Positions 1,684-59,932 are shown, counted from the stretch's first letter. The stretch is 64,000 bases of DNA from an uncultured Gemmatimonadaceae bacterium (GCA_963757185.1 CAVWQI010000003.1:1-64000); one strand, 5' to 3'. The notes: generated from the letters alone by a model not told the origin. Numbers and translations: made by a program.

Positions 1684-4600
1684 TCAGTAGGCGATGTTGA
1701 CGCCGATCGTGACGCCCTTCGCCAGCGGATACTGGCCGACGTCGACCCCGCGATTCACGTTGCCGATGCCGAGACTGCTCACGTCCGGGTTGAACCCGCT
1801 GTAATGCGTCCACGTGACGAGGTTCGTGCCGGTGATGTAGGCTCGAGTGTTCGACAACCCGTACCGAGACAAAAAGCGCTCGGGCACTTGAACGTCGAGC
1901 GTCACGCTGCGCAGTCGCAGGTAGGATCCGTCCTCGAGCAGGTCGCTCGTGATGTCCGATCCCGTCGTGCCCGGAGTGAAGTTGATGCGCGGGAAATCGG
2001 CGCCGGTGTTGGCCGCCGTCCACGCGTCGAAGTAGCGGTCGGAGACGATGTTCGTCCCCGGGCTGCCTTGGATCAGCCGAACGTCGTTCAGGTTCAGAAT
2101 CTTGTTGCCGTAGGTCGCGTCGAGCAGGCCGCTGAGGCGAAAGCGGCCGAGCGTGAACTGGTTCTGCCAGCCCGCGGTGAACTTGGGATTCGGATCGCCG
2201 ATGATCGTGCGGTCGTCCGGCGTGATCGCGCCGTCGGGGCCGGTCGCCTGGCCGTTCACCGGAGCGCCGGCGAGGTCGACGATCATGATGTCGCCAGGAT
2301 GCCACGTCGTGCCGCTCAGCGGTTTCACTTTCGCGCTATATGCCGCGGCGGCGGCCGAATCGCGCAGGATTCCGTTCGTCTTGTATCCGTAGAACACGCC
2401 GAGTGGCTGGCCGACCTGAATCAGCGAGCCGAGGAGCTTGAGGTCGCTGTTCACGCTGCCGGCGAAGATCGACTGCACTCCGCCGAGGTCGAGCACCCGG
2501 TTCTTGTTGTGCGAGTAGTTGACCGTCGTCGTCCACCCGAGCGAATGGGTGCGACCGTCGAGCAGCGTGAGCGTGAGGCCGAGCTCGTACCCGTTGTTGC
2601 TCACCGACCCGACGTTCTGGAGCGCGGTGCCGAATCCGCTCTCGAACGGCAGGTTGACCGCCAGCAGCAGGTCGCTGGTGGTCTTTCTATAGATGTCGCC
2701 CGTAAAGCTCACCCGCCCGCCGTAGAGGCCGAGGTCGACACCGTAGTCGGTCTGGCGCGTCGACTCCCAGCCCAGGTTCGGGTTGCCGACCGACGCCGGG
2801 TAGTAGCCCGGTACGACCGCGCCGCCGAACGTGTATTGCTGCGACAGCAGGTGGGCCATCGACTGGTACGGTTGGATCGAGGGATTGCCCGCGAGACCAG
2901 TCGACGCGCGGAACTTGAGCAACTCGATCGCCGAAAACTTCTGCATGAAGGGCTCGTCCGAGACGCGCCATCCGAATGCCGCCGACGGGAAGAAGCCCCA
3001 TTGGTGATCGGCGCCGAAGCGCGACGAGCCGTCCTCTCGGCCTGTGACTGTGAACAGGTACCGGTTGGCGAGCGTGTAGTTGATGCGTCCGAGGTACGAC
3101 GCCAGCGTCCAGCGCGTGTGACCCGAGGCAACCTGCGGGCCGCCGGTCTGCGTGCCGGCGCCCATGTTCTCGAACACGTCGATGTCGCTGACGAAGTTGC
3201 TGTTCTGGATCGTGTTGAACGTCAGGTCGTTCTGCTGGCGCGAGTATCCCGCCACCGCGTTGATCGCCTGGTTCGCGCTGAACGTGCGGTCGTACGACAG
3301 CGTGTTCTCGTTGAGGAAGTTCGTGTTCTCGGTGCGTCCGGTTTTCGCGTAGCCGTTCGTCTGCGAGCCCATGAGCGTCGTGCGCGGGTAGTACGTGTTG
3401 CGAGACCGGTTCGAGAGATCGCCGCCGAGGCTCGAGCGGAACTTGAGTCCGTCGGCGAGCTGGAATTCGCCGAACGCGTTCGCCAGCACGCGCGTGTCAG
3501 CCAGCTTGTCGGTCACGTCGGCGGCCATCGACACCGGGTTCGGGATGTTCGTCGGCTGGAGCACGCTGGCCGGGTTGTTCTGCGCCATCAGCGTATACGC
3601 GCCGTTGGGCTGGCGCACCGGGAGGATCGGGTAGTAGTCGATCGCCGCCCCGACCGCGCCGGCGCCGGCGTTGAGCGAGCCGTCGGTCGGAACCGAGTTC
3701 GTATTCACGCGGCTCACCATGACCGTGCTCGCCACGCGCGCGCGGCTTCCGATGTCCTGATCGAGGTTGCCGCGGAGCGAGATGCGCTTGAACGCCGAGT
3801 TGATGACGACGCCCTGCTGCTGGAACACGCCGCCGGAGAGCGCGTAGTGCGTCGCGTTCGCGCCGGCGTTCCCGCCGGTCACGCCAAGCTGGAGGTTGGC
3901 GAGCGGCGCGCTGCGGAAGATTTGCGACTGCCAGTCGGTGTTGGGCAGCGTGTCCGGGTTGGAGAAGACGACACCGGTGCCGTTGTTCACCGACCAGTCG
4001 TTGACGAACTTCGCGAAGCCGGCGGCGTTGAGAAGCTGGTAACGGTGCGCCACGCTCTGGCTGCCGCTGTACGTGTCGAGCGTGAACACGGGACGCGCGG
4101 TCTGCCCGTGCTTTGTCGTGATGATGATGACGCCGTTCGCCCCGCGCGCGCCGTAGATCGACGTCGCCGACGCGTCCTTCAGGATCTCGATCGACTCGAT
4201 GTCGGCCGGGTTGAGCGCCGCCAGCGGATTCGACGGAACCGTCGTCGTCGCGTCACGGCCGCCGTCGCTCGGGTTCTGCAGGTCGGCGTTGTTCTCGATC
4301 GGGAAGCCGTCGATGACGTAGAGCGGCTCGTTGTTGCCCGTCACCGATGAGCCGCCTCGAATCCGAATGGAAAGCGCGCCGCCGGGTGCGGACGATGCCT
4401 GCGTCACCGAGACGCCGGCCGCCGCGCCTTGCAGCGCCTGTTCGAGCGAGAGCGTCGGCGTCTGCTCGACGTTCGGCGTCACCGTCGCGACTGAGCCGGT
4501 CAGATCCGACCGCCGCTGCGCGCCGTAGCCGACGACGACCATCTGGTCGAGCGTGACGGACGCCGCGGAGAGCGCGATGTTGAGCGTGACCGTTTGGCCG

Positions 4601-6430: not shown

Positions 6431-8263
6431 ATGGCCGCACCGCAAATCACACAAGACCGGCTGGGCGACATGCTCGTGCGTGAGGGGTTGATCACGCGCG
6501 AGCAGTTGTCCAAGGCGTTGGCGGAGCAGAAGCAGAGCGGGCAACGGCTCGGCTATACGCTCGTGAAGATGGGCATCCTGCCCGAGATCGACCTCACGAA
6601 AGTGCTGGCGAAGCAGCATCGCATGCCGGCCGTCGATCTCTCGCGATTCGAGGTCGATCCGAAGATCGCGAAGATGATTACCGCGGAACTCGCCCAGAAG
6701 CATCTGGTGATGCCGCTCAAGCGCGAGGGACGATCGCTGACCGTCGCGATCGCCGACCCGTCGAACCTCGTCGTGCTCGAGGACATCAAGTTCATCACGC
6801 GGTGCGACATCATCCCGGTGGTGGCCGGCGAGTACACGCTGGCGACGATGGTCGAGAAGGTCTTCGGCTCGACGGACGACCAGCAGATGGCGTCGTTGAT
6901 GGACACCATCACCGAGCTCGAAGGCATCAACGACGTCGAGGTGTTGGAGGACGAGGAAGACGACGTCTCGCAAGCGGCCCTCCAGGCGCAGATGGAGGAC
7001 GCGCCCGTCGTCAAGCTGATCAACGCGATCCTCACCGACGCGGTGAAGCGAGGCGCGTCCGACATTCATTTTGAATGCTTCGAGCACGAGATCCGCGTCC
7101 GGTATCGCATCGACGGCGCGCTCCAGGAAGTCATGAAGCCGCCGCTCAAGCTCCGCGCGGCGCTCATCTCGCGGTTCAAGATCATGGCGATGCTGAACAT
7201 CGCCGAGCGGCGCGTGCCGCAGGACGGCCGCATCAAGCTGAAGATCGGCAACCGCGTCATCGACTACCGCGTGTCGACGCTGCCGACGCTGTTCGGCGAG
7301 AAAGTCGTGCTGCGAATTCTCGACAAGGGCAACCTGACGTTCGACCTCTCGACGTTCGGCATCGAGCCGCGCGCCGAGGCGGACCTCATGGAGGCGATCT
7401 CGAACCCGTACGGCATGGTGCTCGTCACGGGCCCGACGGGCTCGGGCAAGACGACGACGCTCTACTCGGCGCTCTCCAAGGTCAACCAGATGGACGTCAA
7501 CATCATGACCGCCGAGGATCCTGTCGAGTACAACCTGTTCGGCATCAACCAGGTGCTCGTGCGCACCGACATCGGGATGACGTTCGCCGCGGCGCTCAAG
7601 GCGTTCCTGCGGCAGGACCCGAACATCATCATGGTCGGCGAAATTCGAGATCTCGAAACGGGCGGCATCGCCATCAAAGCGGCGCTCACCGGCCACATGG
7701 TGCTCTCGACGCTGCACACGAACTCGGCGCCGGAAACGGTGACGCGTTTGTTGGACATGGGACTCGAGCCGTTCAACGTGGCGTCGGCGGTGAACCTCGT
7801 GCTCGCTCAGCGGCTCGTGCGGCGCATCTGCGCCAACTGCCGCACGCAGTACCAGCCGAGCCCCGAGGAGTGGGCGGCGCTCAAGGTCAAGCCGACGACG
7901 CCGCTGCGCGAGCTGCGGTTCACCGAAGAGGCGCTGATCAACGCCAAGGCAAAGGCGACCAAAGAGGCCGTTCCCTTTCTCGCGAAACTGAGCCTCGACA
8001 CGACGTTCGGCGAGCTGGGCTACTTCAAGGGAGCCGGTTGCGACACGTGCGCCGGAACGGGCCTCAAGGGGCGCCAGGGCGTGTACGAGGTCATGACGAT
8101 GACGCCGCACCTGCGAAAGCTCGTCATGCAGAACGTCGGCGCCGCGGAGATTCGCGAGGGGGCCATCGAAGAGGGAATGCTGACTCTTCGCATGGACGCG
8201 TGGCTCAAGGTGATGAAGGGAATCACCACCACGGAGCAGATGATCCGCGAAACGTCGGCGTAA
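6431..8263 (+). CDS. pilB: type IV pilus assembly ATPase PilB (GspE family)
   Basis: The ORF runs 6359..8263, with a likely ATG at 6431 (MAAPQITQDRLGDMLV). It has the GspE/PilB N-terminal domain, Walker A VTGPTGSGKTTTLY, Asp/His boxes, and a C-terminal tetracysteine motif (CANCRTQY...CDTCAGTG). Confidence 0.9.
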   Translation: MAAPQITQDRLGDMLVREGLITREQLSKALAEQKQSGQRLGYTLVKMGILPEIDLTKVLAKQHRMPAVDLSRFEVDPKIAKMITAELAQKHLVMPLKREGRSLTVAIADPSNLVVLEDIKFITRCDIIPVVAGEYTLATMVEKVFGSTDDQQMASLMDTITELEGINDVEVLEDEEDDVSQAALQAQMEDAPVVKLINAILTDAVKRGASDIHFECFEHEIRVRYRIDGALQEVMKPPLKLRAALISRFKIMAMLNIAERRVPQDGRIKLKIGNRVIDYRVSTLPTLFGEKVVLRILDKGNLTFDLSTFGIEPRAEADLMEAISNPYGMVLVTGPTGSGKTTTLYSALSKVNQMDVNIMTAEDPVEYNLFGINQVLVRTDIGMTFAAALKAFLRQDPNIIMVGEIRDLETGGIAIKAALTGHMVLSTLHTNSAPETVTRLLDMGLEPFNVASAVNLVLAQRLVRRICANCRTQYQPSPEEWAALKVKPTTPLRELRFTEEALINAKAKATKEAVPFLAKLSLDTTFGELGYFKGAGCDTCAGTGLKGRQGVYEVMTMTPHLRKLVMQNVGAAEIREGAIEEGMLTLRMDAWLKVMKGITTTEQMIRETSA

Positions 8264-8270
8264 ACTCAGG

Positions 8271-8321
8271 GCGGTGGACCGGTGGACCGGTGGACCGGTG
8301 GACCGGTAGACCGGTGGACGG
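8271..8321 (+). repeat. octanucleotide tandem repeat (CGGTGGAC)n, about 6 units
   Basis: Reads gcGGTGGACCGGTGGACCGGTGGACCGGTGGACCGGTAGACCGGTGGACgg. It starts 8 nt after the pilB stop. The same repeat family recurs at 47692, 48969 and 58679. Confidence 0.9.
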
Positions 8322-12337: not shown

Positions 12338-13352
12338 ATGTCACTCGGAAGCTTCTTCAAGAAGCAGTTCATCGACGTCATCGCATGGACTGAGGACGTC
12401 CCGGGAACGCTGCAGTTCCGCTACCCGATGCAGGACATGGAGATTCAGAACGGCGCGCAGCTCACGGTGCGCGAGTCGCAGATGGCGGTTTTCGTGAACG
12501 AGGGCGTCTTCGCCGACATCTTTTCGCCCGGCCTCTACACGCTCAACACGAAGACCCTTCCGCTGCTCACCAACCTGCGGAATTGGGACAAGCTCTTTCA
12601 GTCGCCCTTCAAGTCCGACATCTACTTCTATTCGACGCGGCAGCAGACCGGCCAACGGTGGGGCACGCCGATGCCGGTCACGATCCGCGACAAAGAGTTC
12701 GGCGCCGTCCGCCTGCGCGCCAACGGCATCTACTCCTACCACCTCACCGACCCGGCGGTCTTTCAGCAGAAGGTCGCGGCGACGCAGGCCCAGTACACAA
12801 CCGACGAGCTCGAGCCGCATCTGCGCAACGTGATCGTCGGCAAGGTGTCCGACGCGTTCGGGCAGAGCGGGGTCGCGTTCCTCGACATGGCGGGCAACAT
12901 CGACGAGCTGTCGGCGGCGATGCGGGCGCAGGTGGGGCCGCTGTTCTCCGACTTCGGGCTCGCGCTCGACACGTTCCAGGTCGAGAGCCTCTCGCTGCCG
13001 GACGAATTGCAAAAGCTGCTCGACCAGCGCATCGGCATGAACATGGTCGGCGACATGCGGCAGTACGCGCAATTCCAGGCGGCGCAGTCGATGCCGATCG
13101 CCGCGGCGAATCCCGGCGGCGGGGCCGGCATCGGCGCCGGACTTGGTGCCGGCCTCGCGATGGGGAAGGCGATGGCCGACGCGATTTTCCGGCGCGACTT
13201 CCGGCGCGACTTCCGGCGCGACCTCGCCGGCGCCGGGCGCATCGAACGCCGGTGCGGTGCCCTCCGCCGAGACGAAATTCTGCTCGGAGTGCGGCAAGCC
13301 GATCGCGCGGAGCTCGAAGTTCTGCTCCGAGTGCGGCGCGAAACAGGCGTGA
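12338..13352 (+). CDS. SPFH (band-7) domain protein of the YdjI type with C-terminal double zinc ribbon; frameshifted in this sequence
   Basis: ORF 12338..13714 encodes the SPFH domain (MSLGSFFKKQFIDVIAWTED...) and resembles B. subtilis YdjI. The expected C-terminal zinc ribbons (ETKFCSECGKPIARSSKFCSECGAKQA) lie in another frame (ORF 13143..13352). The switch falls at a TTTT run near 13195, followed by a 3x12-bp direct repeat. Confidence 0.7.
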
Positions 13353-19114: not shown

Positions 19115-19120
19115 GGCAGG

Positions 19121-19367
19121 CAACAGCAACTACTCAACGCAGAGACGCGGAGACGCAGGGGACTGCACACCGGGCCGGGCAGTCGCGCAATGAGCCGTGA
19201 TTTTTTGTGAAAGCCGCTCGGGGAGTATCAGAGCGTAGGGGGCAAAGGTCCGAAACCGAGAGGCCTCCCGAGCGGCTTCTTACCAAGCATTCATCCCGGC
19301 CCGTGCTGAGTGGAGGCTTGGCCGGAGCATTGACCCTCTGCGTCTCTGCGTTGAGCAGTTGTCGTTC
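19121..19367. repeat. MITE-like palindromic element, family 1, copy A (about 247 bp)
   Basis: Terminal inverted repeats CAACAGCAACTACTCAACGCAGAGACGC ... GCGTCTCTGCGTTGAGCAGTTGTCGTTC. The interior is also palindromic (GCCGCTCGGG ... CCCGAGCGGC). A second copy lies at 22122..22388. Confidence 0.7.
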
Positions 19368-19618
19368 ATTCGCGGATTTCATGATCCGCGTTGAGTTCTT
19401 GTCGCTTGGCCGGAAACAGGAACAGGCGCGTAAACGAGTGACGTCCCGGCACGTCGGGCAGTTAAGCCCAGCGGCCTTGTGATCGTTCACGGACATTCTC
19501 AGCGCCGGCCCTCGCGTTTTTCTGTACGGCATCATATATATGGACTACAATTGAAGCTTGCGGTTGTGACGCCGCCGATGGCGACCGTGAGTTCGGCCCC
19601 AACGTTTCTCCAACTCAC

Positions 19619-22110: not shown

Positions 22111-22121
22111 CGCGAAAACAG

Positions 22122-22388
22122 CAACGGCAACTGCTCGACGCAGAGACGCAGAGGACGCGGAGTCGCAGAGGACTGCACACGAGGTTGGGGTCGAACCGCC
22201 GGCACGGGATGTTTTGTGACCGCCGCTCGGGAAGCTACTCATACCGTGGAGGCCTACGTCGCCACGACGAGGCACCCTGAGCGGCTCTCACAAAAACATC
22301 CCGGCTCGTTGCGCGATGGAGCCTGCCCTGCGGCTGTCCTCTGCGTCCCCTGCGCCTCCGCGTCCTCTGCGTTGAGTGGTTGTCGTTC
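22122..22388. repeat. MITE-like palindromic element, family 1, copy B (about 267 bp)
   Basis: Same TIRs as copy A (CAACGGCAACTGCTCGACGCAGAGACGCAG ... CTCTGCGTTGAGTGGTTGTCGTTC) and conserved internal blocks (GACTGCACAC, TTTTGTGA.CGCCGCTCGG, GAGCGGCT). It lies between convergent genes. Confidence 0.7.
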
Positions 22389-22406
22389 TAGCCCCGGTCA
22401 AAAGAA

Positions 22407-47039: not shown

Positions 47040-47681
47040 TCACTTGACGATGCGGGCGGTCTTGATCGCGTCGAGCTTTGGGAAAGTCCGGTCGAGATAC
47101 GAGTTCCCGAGATTGCTGATGGACGTCTGATCGGGCGTCTCGCCATAGCCGCTGTACAGCGAATCGACCACCGGCATTCCTTGGACGACCACGCCGATCG
47201 GAGCGAAGCCCGCGCGATCGAGCGGCGCGTTGTCCTTCAAGTTGAAGAACATCTGGTGGCTGCGTGTGTTCGGCACGCTCATCGCGGCGAAAGTCAGCGT
47301 GCCTTTCGCGTTCGTATGCCGAACCGAGTCGTCGGGGATTCGCTTCCCGTCCCACGGGTCGTTCCGCTTCGGATCGCCGTTCAATCCGAACTGTGCGACG
47401 AATCCCGGAACGACGCGAAAGAATTTCTCGCCGTCGAAGAATCGCTGCCCGACGAGCTCGTAGAATCGATCCGCGCCCGCTGGCGCCCACGCGCGGTTCA
47501 CCTGAACGACGAAATTCCCCCGGGTCGTCTCGAACGCGACGCGGAACGAATCCGGCGCCGACCTCCCCGTGTCCACCGCGACCTTCACTGCTGCGGCACT
47601 ATTCCCCGCGGCGGCGCTATTTCCCGCGGCCGGCGCCTTCTCACCGCCGCCGCATGCGACCGCCAGCACGGCCACCGTCAT
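47040..47681 (-). CDS. cyclophilin-type peptidyl-prolyl cis-trans isomerase lipoprotein
   Basis: The ORF runs 47040..47777. The real start is MTVAVLAVACGG at 47681. Cyclophilin motifs (FHRVVPGFVAQFG, KGTLTFAAMS). An 18-bp tandem duplication encodes AAGNSAAAGNSAAA in the linker. Confidence 0.85.
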   Translation of the reverse strand: MTVAVLAVACGGGEKAPAAGNSAAAGNSAAAVKVAVDTGRSAPDSFRVAFETTRGNFVVQVNRAWAPAGADRFYELVGQRFFDGEKFFRVVPGFVAQFGLNGDPKRNDPWDGKRIPDDSVRHTNAKGTLTFAAMSVPNTRSHQMFFNLKDNAPLDRAGFAPIGVVVQGMPVVDSLYSGYGETPDQTSISNLGNSYLDRTFPKLDAIKTARIVK

Positions 47682-47691
47682 CGTCGTTAGT

Positions 47692-47729
47692 CCCGTCCAC
47701 CGGTCCACCGGTCCACCGGTCCACCGTCT
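47692..47729 (-). repeat. (CGGTGGAC)n octamer repeat, about 4.5 units
   Basis: The plus strand reads CCGTCCACCGGTCCACCGGTCCACCGGTCCACCGTC. It ends 10 nt before the cyclophilin ATG (on the minus strand) and abuts the stop codon of the upstream amidohydrolase gene. Confidence 0.9.
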
Positions 47730-49004
47730 ACTTAGGCCAGCCATTCTGTGGAATCCCCTTGGTGATTTTGAGTGCATTCTCGAAATAGACCTTCTTCAGC
47801 ACACTGTCCGGCAGCCCGATGCCGTAGAGCTTCCAAAACGCGTGATACGGTCGGTAGTAGTCGAAGTAGTCGTCGTTCGTCTCGAAGACGCGCCAATAAT
47901 ATGGGTATTCCTCCGGCTGGAAGGAGTCTTTGCCGAAAAGAATCCGGTCCTGATACTTGATGAAGAAATCATGCGCGGCTCGCGGCTGGCGCCCGATGTC
48001 GTAGAGCACCGCGCCCACTTCCGTGTAGACGTTCGGCATCTCGTCCAGCATCTTGGACAGAGCGCCGAGGTCGTTCGCGTGCCACCCCATGTGCGCGGCG
48101 ACGAACGTCGTCTTGGGGTGCTTGCGGAACAGGTTGTCCCGCTCGGTCATCAGCTCCTCGAAGCTCGGAAACTTGTCCTGCGGATAGCGCCTGTCCGCGA
48201 ACAGCGAGAGCTCGAGCCAACGCTCGTTCGTGTAGTCGATCGGCTTGAAGAATTCCTGTGGGTCGGCCGTGTGGATGAACACCGGAAGGCCGAGCCGGGC
48301 ACACTCGTCCCAGATCGGGTCGAGCTCGGGGTCGTCGATGCGCAAACGCGAGCCGTCGGGCTTTCGAACCGACAGCCCGAGGCTCTTCGAGATTTCTCCT
48401 ACGCCGACCGCGCCGGCGGCGATGTCCGCGTCGAGTTGCTTGATCGCGCCGGCCGCCCACTCCGGCCCCACGTTTCTGAAGTTGATGCCGGCGAGAATGC
48501 GCACCCGCTCCTTCATCGCCGGAGACGCCGCGACCGCCGTGAGCACGCTCTTCAAACGGTCGCCCGACAGATTGTCCGCGCTGATCATCATCCGCACGTT
48601 CAGGCTGTCGAGCGACGCCTTGAGCGACGCAAGCCCTTCCGCCGAGGCGATGAGATTCCCCGGATGTCCGTGGAAATCGATCGCCGGATACTTGGCGGTC
48701 GGCACGAGATGCGCCGGCACGATCAACGTCGACTTCGGCCGGTAATCGAGAATACTCGGCGGCGTGCCATCCGGGGCCATGCAGCTGCGCGGGCGAATCT
48801 CCGTCGTACCGGGTGGACACGACTCGCCCGCCGGAATCGGAGAGCCGCGTCCGCCGCCGCGCCCGGCGCCGCGCCCGCCGCCAGTGGGCGGGTTCTGCGC
48901 CGAAAGCATCGCGGGAAGCAGCAGGCTCGCCAAGACGAAACTGCTCCCACGGAGGCGAAACTTGTGTCCGCGGTCCGCCGGTCCACCGGTCCACCGGTCC
49001 ACCG

Positions 49005-49008
<4 letters not shown>
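47728..49008 (-). CDS. amidohydrolase family (PF04909-like TIM-barrel metal hydrolase), secreted
   Basis: The ORF runs 47728..49473. The ATG at 49008 overlaps the S9 peptidase stop (ATGA) and begins MTVDRWTGGPADRGHKFRLRGSSFVLASLLLPAMLSAQ. Codons 3-14 are encoded by the octamer repeat. A Gly/Arg-rich tract (GGGRGAGRGGGRG) follows the signal. Confidence 0.75.
48969..49005 (-). repeat. (CGGTGGAC)n octamer repeat, about 4.5 units, inside the 5' end of the amidohydrolase CDS
   Basis: The plus strand reads CGCGGTCCGCCGGTCCACCGGTCCACCGGTCCACCGT. Three full units (24 nt) keep the reading frame. Confidence 0.9.
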
Positions 49009-52106
<3,098 letters not shown>

Positions 52107-58556: not shown

Positions 58557-58576
58557 GAGGATCTCCGATGGAAAAG

Positions 58577-58609
58577 GTCTCAGTCTCAGGTCTCAGGTCT
58601 CAGGTCTCG
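58577..58609. repeat. heptanucleotide tandem repeat (GTCTCAG), 4-5 units, about 20 nt upstream of the PEBP gene start
   Basis: GGTCTCAGTCTCAGGTCTCAGGTCTCAGGTCTCGG. It sits in the 5' leader/promoter region of the minus-strand gene starting at 58556. Confidence 0.85.
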
Positions 58610-58678
58610 GGAGTTCACTCGGAGGTGAGCCCAAGTTAGCCAAGTGGGAAGCGCTCGGTTCCCTGTGGAGCGGTTCAG

Positions 58679-58737
58679 CGGTTCACCGGTCCACCGGTCC
58701 ACCGTCCACCCGTCCACCGGTCCACCCGTCCACCCGA
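58679..58737 (-). repeat. degenerate (CGGTGGAC)n octamer/heptamer repeat, about 7 units
   Basis: CGGTTCACCGGTCCACCGGTCCACCGTCCACCCGTCCACCGGTCCACCCGTCCACCCGACC. It abuts the MFS gene stop and lies upstream of the PEBP gene. Confidence 0.85.
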
Positions 58738-58738
58738 C

Positions 58739-59932
58739 CTACGCCGCCGCCTTTTCGATCGGCCGATGGACGAAGACGAACACAGCCGCGGACGCGACCT
58801 GGAAGACCATGCCGAAAACGACGAGCGCGATCAAGCTCCGATTGTACAGCTGCCCCATGATCGCGCTGCCGAGGAACCACATGATGCCGAACACGCCGTT
58901 GAACGCGCCGAACGCGTGACCGCGCTTGTTCATGGACACCGCCTGCGCGATCCCCGCGCGAAGCGTGGCGTCCTGCACGCCGAGTCCCGCCGCCCAGCAC
59001 ATGACGGCGGCCGCGGCGCTCAACGGGCCGCCGAGGAATCCGAGCGGCAGCGCGAACATCGTCGCCAAAATGCCCACCACCAGCACCCAGATCCCGTACC
59101 GATCGAACAGGATGCCGCAGATGAACGCCGTCAGTCCCACGACGCCCATGGCGCCGGCGTACAAAATCGGAATCGTCTGCGGAGTGAACAGGCCGGTGTG
59201 CTGGAAGTGGTATCCGAGAAGTGGGAAGTCGAGAAAGCCCATGGCGAGCAGGCCGGACCCGACGACGTAGACCCAGAAGAGTCGCGTGAGCGGTTCGTCG
59301 GCTTTGGGCTTGGGCGGCGTGCCCTTGTTCGGCCGGTAGTGCATCGCGAGGAGCAACGACGCGAGCGCGAGCACGGCCGGGACTCCCAGCATGAGAAACG
59401 CCGGGCCGAACACGTGCGTGCGCGCGACTGCATACGCCACGTACAGCGGACCGATGATCGCGCCCGTCTGATCCATCGCCGCGTGGATGCCGAACCCTTT
59501 TCCGTGCCCGACGACGCCCGTCGCCTCCGACAGCAGCACGTCTCGCGCGGGGCCGCGAATGGCTTTTCCCGTGCGTTCGGCGATGATGAGAATCGCCGCC
59601 ATCTGCCACGTGTGGACGAAGGCCAGGCCAGGAATGGCGATCAGGTTCATCGCATATCCGGCGATGACGATCGGCCAGTAGGCGCGCGTTCGGTCGGCGA
59701 ACTTGCCCGAGAAGTAGCGAAGGCTGGCGGCCACCATTTCGCCGAATCCGGAGATCAAGCCGACCAGCGCCGCGGTGACGCCCAGGTCGTTGAGGAACGG
59801 CCCGATGCCGCTGTATGCGCCCTCGTACGTCATGTCAGCGAACAGGCTGACGATGCCGAGGCAAACGATGAAGCGGAACGCGGCCGCGCGCTCTGTCGAC
59901 GGCGTTGTCGGGGCGGTCAAGCGATCAGTCAA
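58739..59932 (-). CDS. MFS transporter
   Basis: 397 aa with 12 predicted TM segments and typical MFS loop motifs. Confidence 0.8.
   Translation of the reverse strand: MTDRLTAPTTPSTERAAAFRFIVCLGIVSLFADMTYEGAYSGIGPFLNDLGVTAALVGLISGFGEMVAASLRYFSGKFADRTRAYWPIVIAGYAMNLIAIPGLAFVHTWQMAAILIIAERTGKAIRGPARDVLLSEATGVVGHGKGFGIHAAMDQTGAIIGPLYVAYAVARTHVFGPAFLMLGVPAVLALASLLLAMHYRPNKGTPPKPKADEPLTRLFWVYVVGSGLLAMGFLDFPLLGYHFQHTGLFTPQTIPILYAGAMGVVGLTAFICGILFDRYGIWVLVVGILATMFALPLGFLGGPLSAAAAVMCWAAGLGVQDATLRAGIAQAVSMNKRGHAFGAFNGVFGIMWFLGSAIMGQLYNRSLIALVVFGMVFQVASAAVFVFVHRPIEKAAA

Follow-up and report, generated by a model that had tools for sequence, protein, structure and literature searches.

A dispersed octanucleotide microsatellite family anchored to stop codons in the sense orientation in soil Gemmatimonadaceae

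Among the dispersed repeats of bacteria, the short tandemly repeated repetitive sequences (STRRs) are units capable of hairpin formation that are found in intergenic regions, also within operons such as hupS-hupL, are specific to certain lineages and have no established function (PMC2670836). The mycobacterial interspersed repetitive units (MIRUs), known as variable number tandem repeat (VNTR) loci, are tandem repeats of the intercistronic regions of operons, for which a role in differential translation within polycistronic operons has been proposed (PMC2734929). The repetitive extragenic palindromic sequences (REPs) cause ribosome stalling and a drop in translation when they lie 15 nt or less from a stop codon (PMC12306157). 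The family considered here consists of tandem arrays of the octanucleotide CGGTGGAC and was encountered in a stretch of 64,000 nucleotides from an uncultured Gemmatimonadaceae bacterium (GCA_963757185.1 CAVWQI010000003.1:1-64000), hereafter called the window, with a G+C content of 65.8%. The Gemmatimonadota are abundant in soil and have hardly been studied by molecular genetics. It can be stated with high confidence that this family is a dispersed microsatellite, anchored to gene ends and biased to the sense strand, of a clade of soil Gemmatimonadaceae. No description of it was found in the literature on tandem or simple-sequence repeats of Gemmatimonadota, and the preliminary description of the window, which was made from the sequence alone and knew of no such element, was right in this respect.

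The arrays of the window were placed by direct reading, by Tandem Repeats Finder and by a two-unit pattern search, which, with up to two mismatches, gave 16 matches against 0.17 expected from shuffles (0 of 100 shuffles reached 16). Genes were modelled with our own codon-usage caller, trained on related loci, and checked with Pfam. The four arrays of the preliminary description are real, its coordinates being 2-6 nt off. The first (8272-8319, plus strand) has six units, the fifth of which is CGGTAGAC, and lies 8 nt past the TAA stop (8261-8263) of a gene for a T2SSE/PilB-like ATPase (~6431-8263); over 300 nt separate it from the start of the next gene, which encodes a PilT-like ATPase. The other three are on the minus strand. 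The array at 48973-49004, (CGGTGGAC)3 followed by CGGCGGAC, separates the stop of an S9-peptidase gene, whose TGA is at 0 nt from it, from the conserved body of an amidohydrolase. The array at 47695-47726 consists of four perfect units, occupies the whole junction between the amidohydrolase and a cyclophilin gene, and begins 1 nt past the amidohydrolase TAG (47728-47730), a native stop (..GWPK/R*) that is found at the same position in array-free orthologues. The last one (58673-58735) is degenerate and reads GGGTGGAC GGGTGGAC CGGTGGAC GGGTGGAC GGTGGAC CGGTGGAC CGGTGAAC CGCTGAAC; its eight units thus include several GGGTGGAC variants, one unit of 7 nt and two with TGA. It is anchored to the TAG stop (58739-58741) of an MFS transporter gene, 3 nt ahead of it, and is followed by a gene for a PEBP-family protein. 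In all four cases CGGTGGAC is the sense strand of both flanking genes, and the array begins 0-8 nt past the stop of the co-directional upstream gene, which it had already been said to abut. No functional theme is apparent among the flanking genes of the window (PilB/PilT ATPases, S9 peptidase, amidohydrolase, cyclophilin, MFS transporter and PEBP protein).

An exact scan for (CGGTGGAC)3, with one public genome per species, found at least 108 stretches. Among those listed, 79 belong to five metagenome-assembled genomes (MAGs) of uncultured Gemmatimonadaceae, in line with the idea of a lineage-specific element; the others are single matches, mostly in actinobacteria. In total, 104 arrays (79 loci plus the window) were analysed, with a modal size of 4 units and a maximum of 24; the largest (192 nt; L082 6306-6497, the L numbers denoting compared sequences) is located 6 nt past a TGA stop at a convergent gene end. 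The density is about one array per 16-30 kb, as counted in the window and from arrays beyond the one that triggered the retrieval of each 8-kb block, and the number of copies per genome is estimated at 200-300. The segment 43060-51025 of the window aligns with 88.6% identity to L061, from one of the five MAGs, so the window comes from a different but related species, and a contig from a soil metagenome (L111) has 98% protein-level identity to the window. The arrays are not assembly artefacts, because the same ones occupy orthologous sites in independent assemblies. A phage origin was rejected, since a collection of 2.9 million viral contigs contained a single match. Outside the Gemmatimonadaceae the arrays are sporadic (L075 710-789 in Vicinamibacterales, L018 3518-3605 in Arthrobacter, and L016, L060 and L070) and are often preceded by TGA, TAGAC or TGAC, as in L075, where aagTGA is followed by 10 units; judging from these contexts, the stop-anchored pattern may extend to other phyla.

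The relation of arrays to stops was examined in the 99 arrays away from locus edges, a stop being linked to an array when a well-scoring open reading frame (ORF) ended within about 20 nt of it. Fifty-four of the 99 follow a stop in the sense orientation, mostly at +1 to +4 nt, and 13 follow one in the antisense orientation; six of these 13 lie between convergent genes and are counted in both groups, so that 48 sense-only arrays stand against 7 antisense-only ones (p=1.3e-8). When the strands of the upstream and downstream genes are compared with that of the array, 44 arrays are same/same, 25 same/opposite, 14 opposite/opposite and 13 opposite/same. Between co-directional genes the array is sense in 44 of 58 cases (14 antisense; p=1e-4). 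Between convergent genes, where orientation alone is uninformative, distance was used instead, and 20 of the 24 arrays proved to be closer to their sense stop (p=0.0015). With a free spacer of 60 nt or more, sense arrays are nearer the upstream stop in 27 of 29 cases (p=1.6e-6), and the median distance is 2 nt to the upstream stop versus 96.5 nt to the next gene start. Depending on the context, about 12-25% of the arrays are antisense.

The positional rule is thus a sense anchoring to the upstream stop, and the link with the downstream gene is a by-product of it. The preliminary description had stressed the latter, stating that the repeat is always in the orientation of the downstream gene; this holds for the four arrays of the window and fails as a general rule, since, of the 69 arrays with the sense strand of the upstream gene, 25 are followed by a gene on the other strand. 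It had also regarded four placements in the same orientation as non-random. Alone, these four are weak evidence (p ~0.06-0.12), but the rule is repeated in 100 further arrays from related genomes, and the scan of public genomes shows both position and orientation to be non-random. Arrays on the plus and minus strands alternate along contigs of 1.8-3.4 Mb; array polarity therefore follows the local gene and not the replichore, and a replichore-polar motif similar to the FtsK-orienting polar sequences (KOPS) or Chi (GCTGGTGG vs ACCGGTGG) is ruled out on the same grounds. One 4-unit array with conserved flanks is present in two MAGs (L074 7702-7733 and L087 4460-4491); it falls within a predicted opposite-strand gene in the first and was called intergenic in the second, and arrays may thus persist within coding sequence too.

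The stop codon is frequently part of the repeat itself. When each stop was phased against the perfect core of its array, 11 of 25 TAG codons coincided with the TGG of the unit (p=1e-4 against the 1/8 expected) and 7 of 21 TGA codons with its GGAC position (p=0.011); the phases as a whole are distributed non-uniformly (chi-square p=6e-4). All the in-register TAG codons are preceded by G, and in 7 of the 11 the next two nucleotides are AC. The GTAG context is 2.8-fold enriched at array stops (20/55 vs 98/575 in all genes; p=0.0016); the enrichment of ATGA overlaps at arrays is not significant (8/21 vs 63/305; p=0.10). About one third of the stops can be described as a first unit in register with one mismatch, in which TGG is changed to TAG to give ..GTAGAC|CGGTGGAC or, in the other form, GGAC to TGAC. 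Some ORFs (L068, L078) continue for 1-3 units of the array before a variant unit with TAG or TGA closes them. As read from the sequence, none of the frames of the unit contains a stop codon; a single mutation would turn the sense-frame codons TGG and GGA into a stop, which holds for no codon of the antisense frames.

In comparison with the described systems, the family resembles the cyanobacterial STRRs in its dispersed short tandem units, whose length is not a multiple of three, in its intergenic location, including operons, in its restriction to a lineage and in its capacity to form hairpins; many dispersed intergenic copies, by which STRRs are recognised, are found here as well. It differs in the unit, which is 7 bp in STRRs of heterocystous cyanobacteria and 8 bp in Gemmatimonadaceae, where units of 7 nt are only occasional (window 58673-58735, L174). 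We know of no report of stop-codon anchoring, sense bias or an in-register stop for STRRs. In its working the family is closest to STRRs and, within operons, to MIRUs and stop-proximal REPs, and it misses defining features of each. It belongs among the dispersed intergenic tandem-repeat families, and its unusual trait is the strong anchoring to, and register with, the stop codon.

The explanation tentatively preferred, to which we give slightly less than an even chance, is that of a repeat family seeded at stop codons and maintained by slippage, in which whatever the array may do to the mRNA would follow generically from its presence and would not be why it exists. Existing arrays would be copied, by template switching or gene conversion, onto short sequences similar to the unit, and stop contexts such as G-TAG-AC or TGA-C would be the seed sites, which would set position and strand in one step. 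Replication slippage would then lengthen the arrays and keep them homogeneous, and selection would leave only those that do not break genes, either just past a stop or in signal-peptide N-termini, which tolerate insertions; arrays could be accommodated in the latter because the unit has no stop in any frame. At tight operon junctions the array would join the downstream ORF and provide it with a GTG or ATGA start and with N-terminal residues, and a 3' stem-loop or ribosome stalling at the stop would be a generic side effect of its presence. The size and host range of the family, the sense bias and the stop register support this account, as do several results presented below: the ordinary folding of the arrays, the differing units of other lineages, an orthologous site without array in L112, a GTG start inside an array in four lineages and a unit number that behaves as in microsatellites.

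Several points weigh against stop seeding. The spreading step was deduced, no donor-recipient event having been observed. Only about one third of the stops are in register, and arrays that follow TAA or unrelated linkers of 3-8 nt are equally tightly anchored, which seeding by microhomology leaves unexplained. Arrays at orthologous sites have persisted through divergence at the species level, and at one site several lineages have repeats; this persistence could equally be a sign of selection for function. As for the data, the gene calls come from our own codon-usage caller and no standard tool, the loci were chosen for having at least three perfect units, and about seven pairs of arrays are orthologues and hence non-independent events.

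The unit is the palindrome ACCGGT plus GG, and, from its position, the array would be co-transcribed with the upstream gene into a transcript that could fold as a long imperfect hairpin. The predicted fold is a single hairpin of 6-bp ACCGGU helices with GG/GG loops between them, of -16, -27 and -38 kcal/mol for 4, 6 and 8 units, respectively. This invites a second explanation, namely a dedicated stop-proximal RNA stem-loop of the REP or STRR kind, beginning 0-4 nt past the stop, that would protect the 3' end of the upstream cistron, terminate or pause transcription, or stall the terminating ribosome and thereby adjust the output of the upstream gene, with a strength set by the number of units. 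By analogy, the arrays fall within the 15-nt distance at which REPs of E. coli stall ribosomes and reduce translation (PMC12306157), and STRRs have also been proposed as hairpin-forming stabilisers or coupling elements (PMC2670836). Such a function would also suit the retention of the arrays at orthologous sites and the scarcity of canonical terminators with a hairpin and a U-tract, which are near chance level in the window (22 vs 12.3 +/- 3.7 and 11 vs 12.0 in two 20-kb segments), the terminator-like sites being mostly within genes. Moreover, for about 15% of the arrays a second array lies inverted 20-100 nt further downstream, with which a very long duplex could be formed.

The folding, however, is no better than that of controls. 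Against dinucleotide shuffles the z values of the four window arrays do not go beyond -1.1 to -1.6, and arrays built of permuted units are just as stable (-25.1 +/- 6.0 vs -24.7 kcal/mol), so a hairpin that has been selected as such is unsupported. Since the antisense strand folds nearly as well as the sense strand, the hairpin is unable to explain the orientation bias of about 7:1, and it does not predict the in-register stops either; it exists and explains neither feature. Units that other lineages carry past the same gene (GAACGGG, GGCTATC, CGGGTAG) fold poorly, and some arrays lie in operon junctions and are most likely translated there. The arrays are not followed by a U-tract, their flank being CGG and then A-rich (A 38-43% at +4 to +6); an intrinsic, Rho-independent terminator is ruled out by this lack of a U-tract or T-run after the hairpin. 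A dedicated stem-loop is for these reasons regarded as rather unlikely. A two-tier G-quadruplex was discarded too, since allowing for G-quadruplexes in ViennaRNA gains only about 0.1 kcal/mol on pure arrays. In the window there were no Rfam matches at the gathering score and no tRNA or tmRNA genes, which rules out a known RNA family or a tRNA-derived element.

With REPs and the bacterial interspersed mosaic elements (BIMEs) that they form, the arrays share the extragenic location just past stop codons, the capacity to form hairpins and the occurrence of inverted pairs; REPs are co-transcribed, as the arrays would be. Nevertheless, a REP consists of one imperfect palindrome, some 35 nt long, which a REP-associated tyrosine transposase (RAYT) mobilises, while here there are tandem 8-mers whose palindromy comes only from the ACCGGT of each unit and whose folding does not exceed that of shuffled controls. 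Inverted pairs of octamer arrays, 20-160 nt apart, were noticed in L068 (2250-2321 plus, 2415-2446 minus), L101 (3846-3877 plus, 3943-3974 minus), L108 (1420-1483 plus, 1644-1699 minus) and L091 (7131-7170); a read-through transcript of such a pair would give a perfect duplex tens of bp long, an architecture similar to that of the REP doublets known as REPINs. Besides these partners and an unrelated family of palindromes of about 50 nt, the only sign of a conserved module 3' of the arrays is the weak CGG and A-rich signal. The palindromic element (GAGAAATCTGACGTCAGA...TCTGACGTCAGATTTCTC, with GACGTCA-like heptamers) is often found 3-25 nt downstream of an octamer array and is a REP-like hairpin family of its own (L038 6392-6450, L092 2380-2440 and 3930-4025, L043, L017, L044 and L086). 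Its seed GAGAAATCT has 13 matches in the Gemmatimonadaceae loci, about 9 of which are palindromic; the two matches in the window are not.

Two of the window arrays appear to be more than intergenic sequence. At the amidohydrolase/cyclophilin junction, the array at 47695-47726 has 4 units past the same TAG in the window, L111 (98%), L112 (91%) and L061. In L111, ATA replaces the ATG of 47679-47681, and the only start common to the four lineages is an in-frame GTG within the third unit (47706-47708, minus strand), the probable start of the cyclophilin lipoprotein (VDRWTGLTTMTVAVLAVAC...), which yields VDRWTGLTT-MTVAVLAVAC. The array at 48973-49004 is present in the window, L061 and L111, and missing in L112, 91% identical, where the junction is TGA-20 nt-TTG. 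In the three lineages that have it, the S9 peptidase is longer by 3 codons and its TGA (49005-49007 in the window) overlaps the ATG (49006-49008) of the amidohydrolase ORF as ATGA (49005-49008, minus strand). From this ATG the ORF traverses the array and continues in frame into the amidohydrolase, the frame survives an indel of 9 nt in L061, and the ancestral start of the amidohydrolase (MRSSFV... in array-free orthologues) has been lost. Both arrays are, as far as the reading frames tell, most likely translated as signal-peptide N-termini of the downstream proteins. The alternative of a 3' untranslated region or 5' leader, offered in the preliminary description, is in this regard incomplete, as it does not cover two of its four arrays. 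Its remark that three of the four downstream genes encode signal-peptide proteins agrees with our reading of the sequence, not made with a prediction tool, in which three of the four products begin in a signal-peptide-like manner, and it is probably explained by these two translated N-termini.

Regarding MIRUs, Supply et al. are said to have described in 1997 that they are oriented like the flanking genes and that their small ORFs overlap the stop and start codons of the neighbours. The octamer arrays are similarly tandem repeats scattered in intercistronic regions of operons, and the ATGA overlap of 49005-49008 and the mini-ORFs of L089 and L105 resemble MIRU ORFs. Such overlapping ORFs exist only at some operonic arrays (49005-49008; L089, L105, L040), and 24 arrays lie between convergent genes. 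Furthermore, MIRUs have units of 40-100 bp at about 41 loci of Actinobacteria, whereas here the unit is 8 bp, the copies are about ten-fold more numerous and many are at convergent ends without a downstream cistron.

The translated arrays also recall the contingency loci of Haemophilus, Neisseria and Campylobacter, in which tandem repeats with a unit length not divisible by three can occupy the beginning of the coding sequence of exported-protein genes. According to this third possibility, gain or loss of 8-nt units would shift the frame, or the spacing between stop and ORF, and so switch genes for secreted proteins by phase variation. The length of the unit and the signal-peptide proteins encoded by three of the four downstream genes agree with it, and at 48973-49004 and 47695-47726 the sole plausible start is at or in the array, so that a change of one unit would abolish the product. 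Long arrays, in addition, vary between species (8 vs 9, 8 vs 12 and 9 vs 5 units). The short ones, on the other hand, are constant: 4-unit arrays have the same number in every orthologue comparison (window, L061, L111 and L112; L028/L081; L074/L087; L096/L101). At the translated junctions, although the sample is small, 4 units are present in four of four lineages at one (window, L061, L111 and L112) and in the three array-bearing ones at the other (window, L061 and L111), across 88-98% identity, and the frame is ON in every case. In the near-identical strain L110 the degenerate array of eight units at 58673-58735 is unaltered, although the neighbouring heptamer array differs. Translated octamer arrays that do not vary in unit number are unlike contingency loci, and so is the fact that most arrays are outside or away from the downstream ORF; of the 69 sense arrays, 25 are followed by no gene in the same direction, and for many the next start lies over 100 nt away. 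Phase variation is hence a very improbable function. The number of units behaves as in an ordinary microsatellite, short arrays being stable and long ones variable, and the term hypermutable, used in the preliminary description, finds no support in the short arrays, differences having been seen only among long ones.

The unit is specific to the lineage; the occurrence of short repeats at gene ends extends beyond it. In 80 metagenomic orthologues of the amidohydrolase, selected by gene and not by repeats, other lineages were found to have different tandem repeats of 7-8 nt directly past the same stop: TAA(AGCGATC)n(GGCTATC)n, TAA(GCTATCG)n, TAG(CGGGTAG)n and TGA(CGGTGGA)n. These repeats (L152 1358-1446, L153 3638-3733, L160 1528-1564, L169 2371-2430 and L174 2024-2052) lie 0-1 nt past the stop or overlap it, and several of the units of other lineages barely fold. 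Other families of short tandem repeats in the Gemmatimonadaceae loci are found 12 nt or less from a stop 10-12 times and from a start 1-3 times.

This diversity bears on a fourth explanation, in which the array would be a multivalent recognition site for a trans-acting factor, that is, an RNA-binding protein, the 3' tail of the 16S rRNA or a templated "writer"; a recognition motif for some factor had been one of the two readings of the preliminary description. In its favour, strand specificity relative to transcription is strict, and since the unit is homogeneous throughout a genome and yet different at the same orthologous stop in other lineages, either concerted evolution or a trans-acting determinant is needed. 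CsrA sites have a GGA-in-loop motif, and the 3' tail of 16S rRNA is conserved. As judged from sequence and fold, each hairpin or linker would expose UGGA, a motif of the CsrA type, and GGUGGACC could pair at 7 of 8 positions with GGAUCACC of the 16S tail in its conserved form. The units of the other lineages, however, have no common motif, which makes a conserved partner, for example 16S rRNA or CsrA, less likely, and no candidate factor was identified. A regular expression for the RAYT-like HUH...Y..NP motif had no match in the six-frame translations of about 690 kb of sampled loci, and the viral collection, as mentioned, holds one match. A recognition array is consequently considered improbable. 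A bolder version, which seems to us quite improbable, is that gene 3' ends in Gemmatimonadota are marked by a lineage-specific "code" of 7-8 nt, written or read by a trans-acting system. The writer would act by templated repeat synthesis or directed gene conversion, and the reader would be a modular RNA-binding factor at translation termination. Such a code would jointly explain the single dominant and homogeneous unit of each genome, the different repeats at the same stop (CGGTGGAC, AGCGATC/GGCTATC, CGGGTAG, CGGTGGA) and the strand-specific start at the stop.

Other motif-based origins were rejected. DNA uptake sequences are single-copy motifs present about once per kb, coding DNA included. 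Isolated octamer units occur at 0.14 per kb, an estimated two-fold of the expectation from composition, which rules out an uptake sequence. An effect of ACCGGT as a restriction site is likewise ruled out, its ratio of observed to expected frequency outside the arrays being 1.04.

Whatever their origin, the arrays have several practical and biological implications. The family offers a clean natural system in which to study the seeding, spread and confinement of microsatellites in compact genomes. The arrays could serve to mark gene 3' ends and to correct start calls in MAGs, given that two of the four in the window hold the likely true start of the next gene, and they are candidate VNTR markers for strain typing in an uncultured lineage. 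They are also a probable cause of contig breaks in short-read assemblies, as suggested by a short-read metagenome contig that begins inside an octamer array (L109 1-20). If orientation and anchoring were due to a function coupled to termination, or to a writer or reader acting in trans, a new layer would be added to the biology that follows the stop codon.

Some further repeats were noticed in the window. Between the octamer array at 58673-58735 and the PEBP gene there is a heptamer array, (GAGACCT)5 (58575-58608), 18 nt upstream of the start codon (58556), which in L110 is shorter and mutated. Two diverged copies of an element of about 250-280 nt (19115-19385 and 22112-22395) are each located about 20 nt past the stop of a gene. 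They have terminal inverted repeats (AACAGCAACTnCTCnACGCAGAG ... CTCTGCGTTGAGnnGTTGTCGTT) with (GACGCAGAG)n tandem units and conserved internal blocks (GCCGCTCGGG...GAGCGGC), have no match in Rfam, and could be a miniature inverted-repeat transposable element or an undescribed structured RNA. Finally, an imperfect (CCG)21 near the 5' end of the S9-peptidase gene (51700-51762) and a perfect 12-mer repeat, (TTCCGGCGCGAC)3, within a gene (13187-13222) are probably coding low-complexity repeats.
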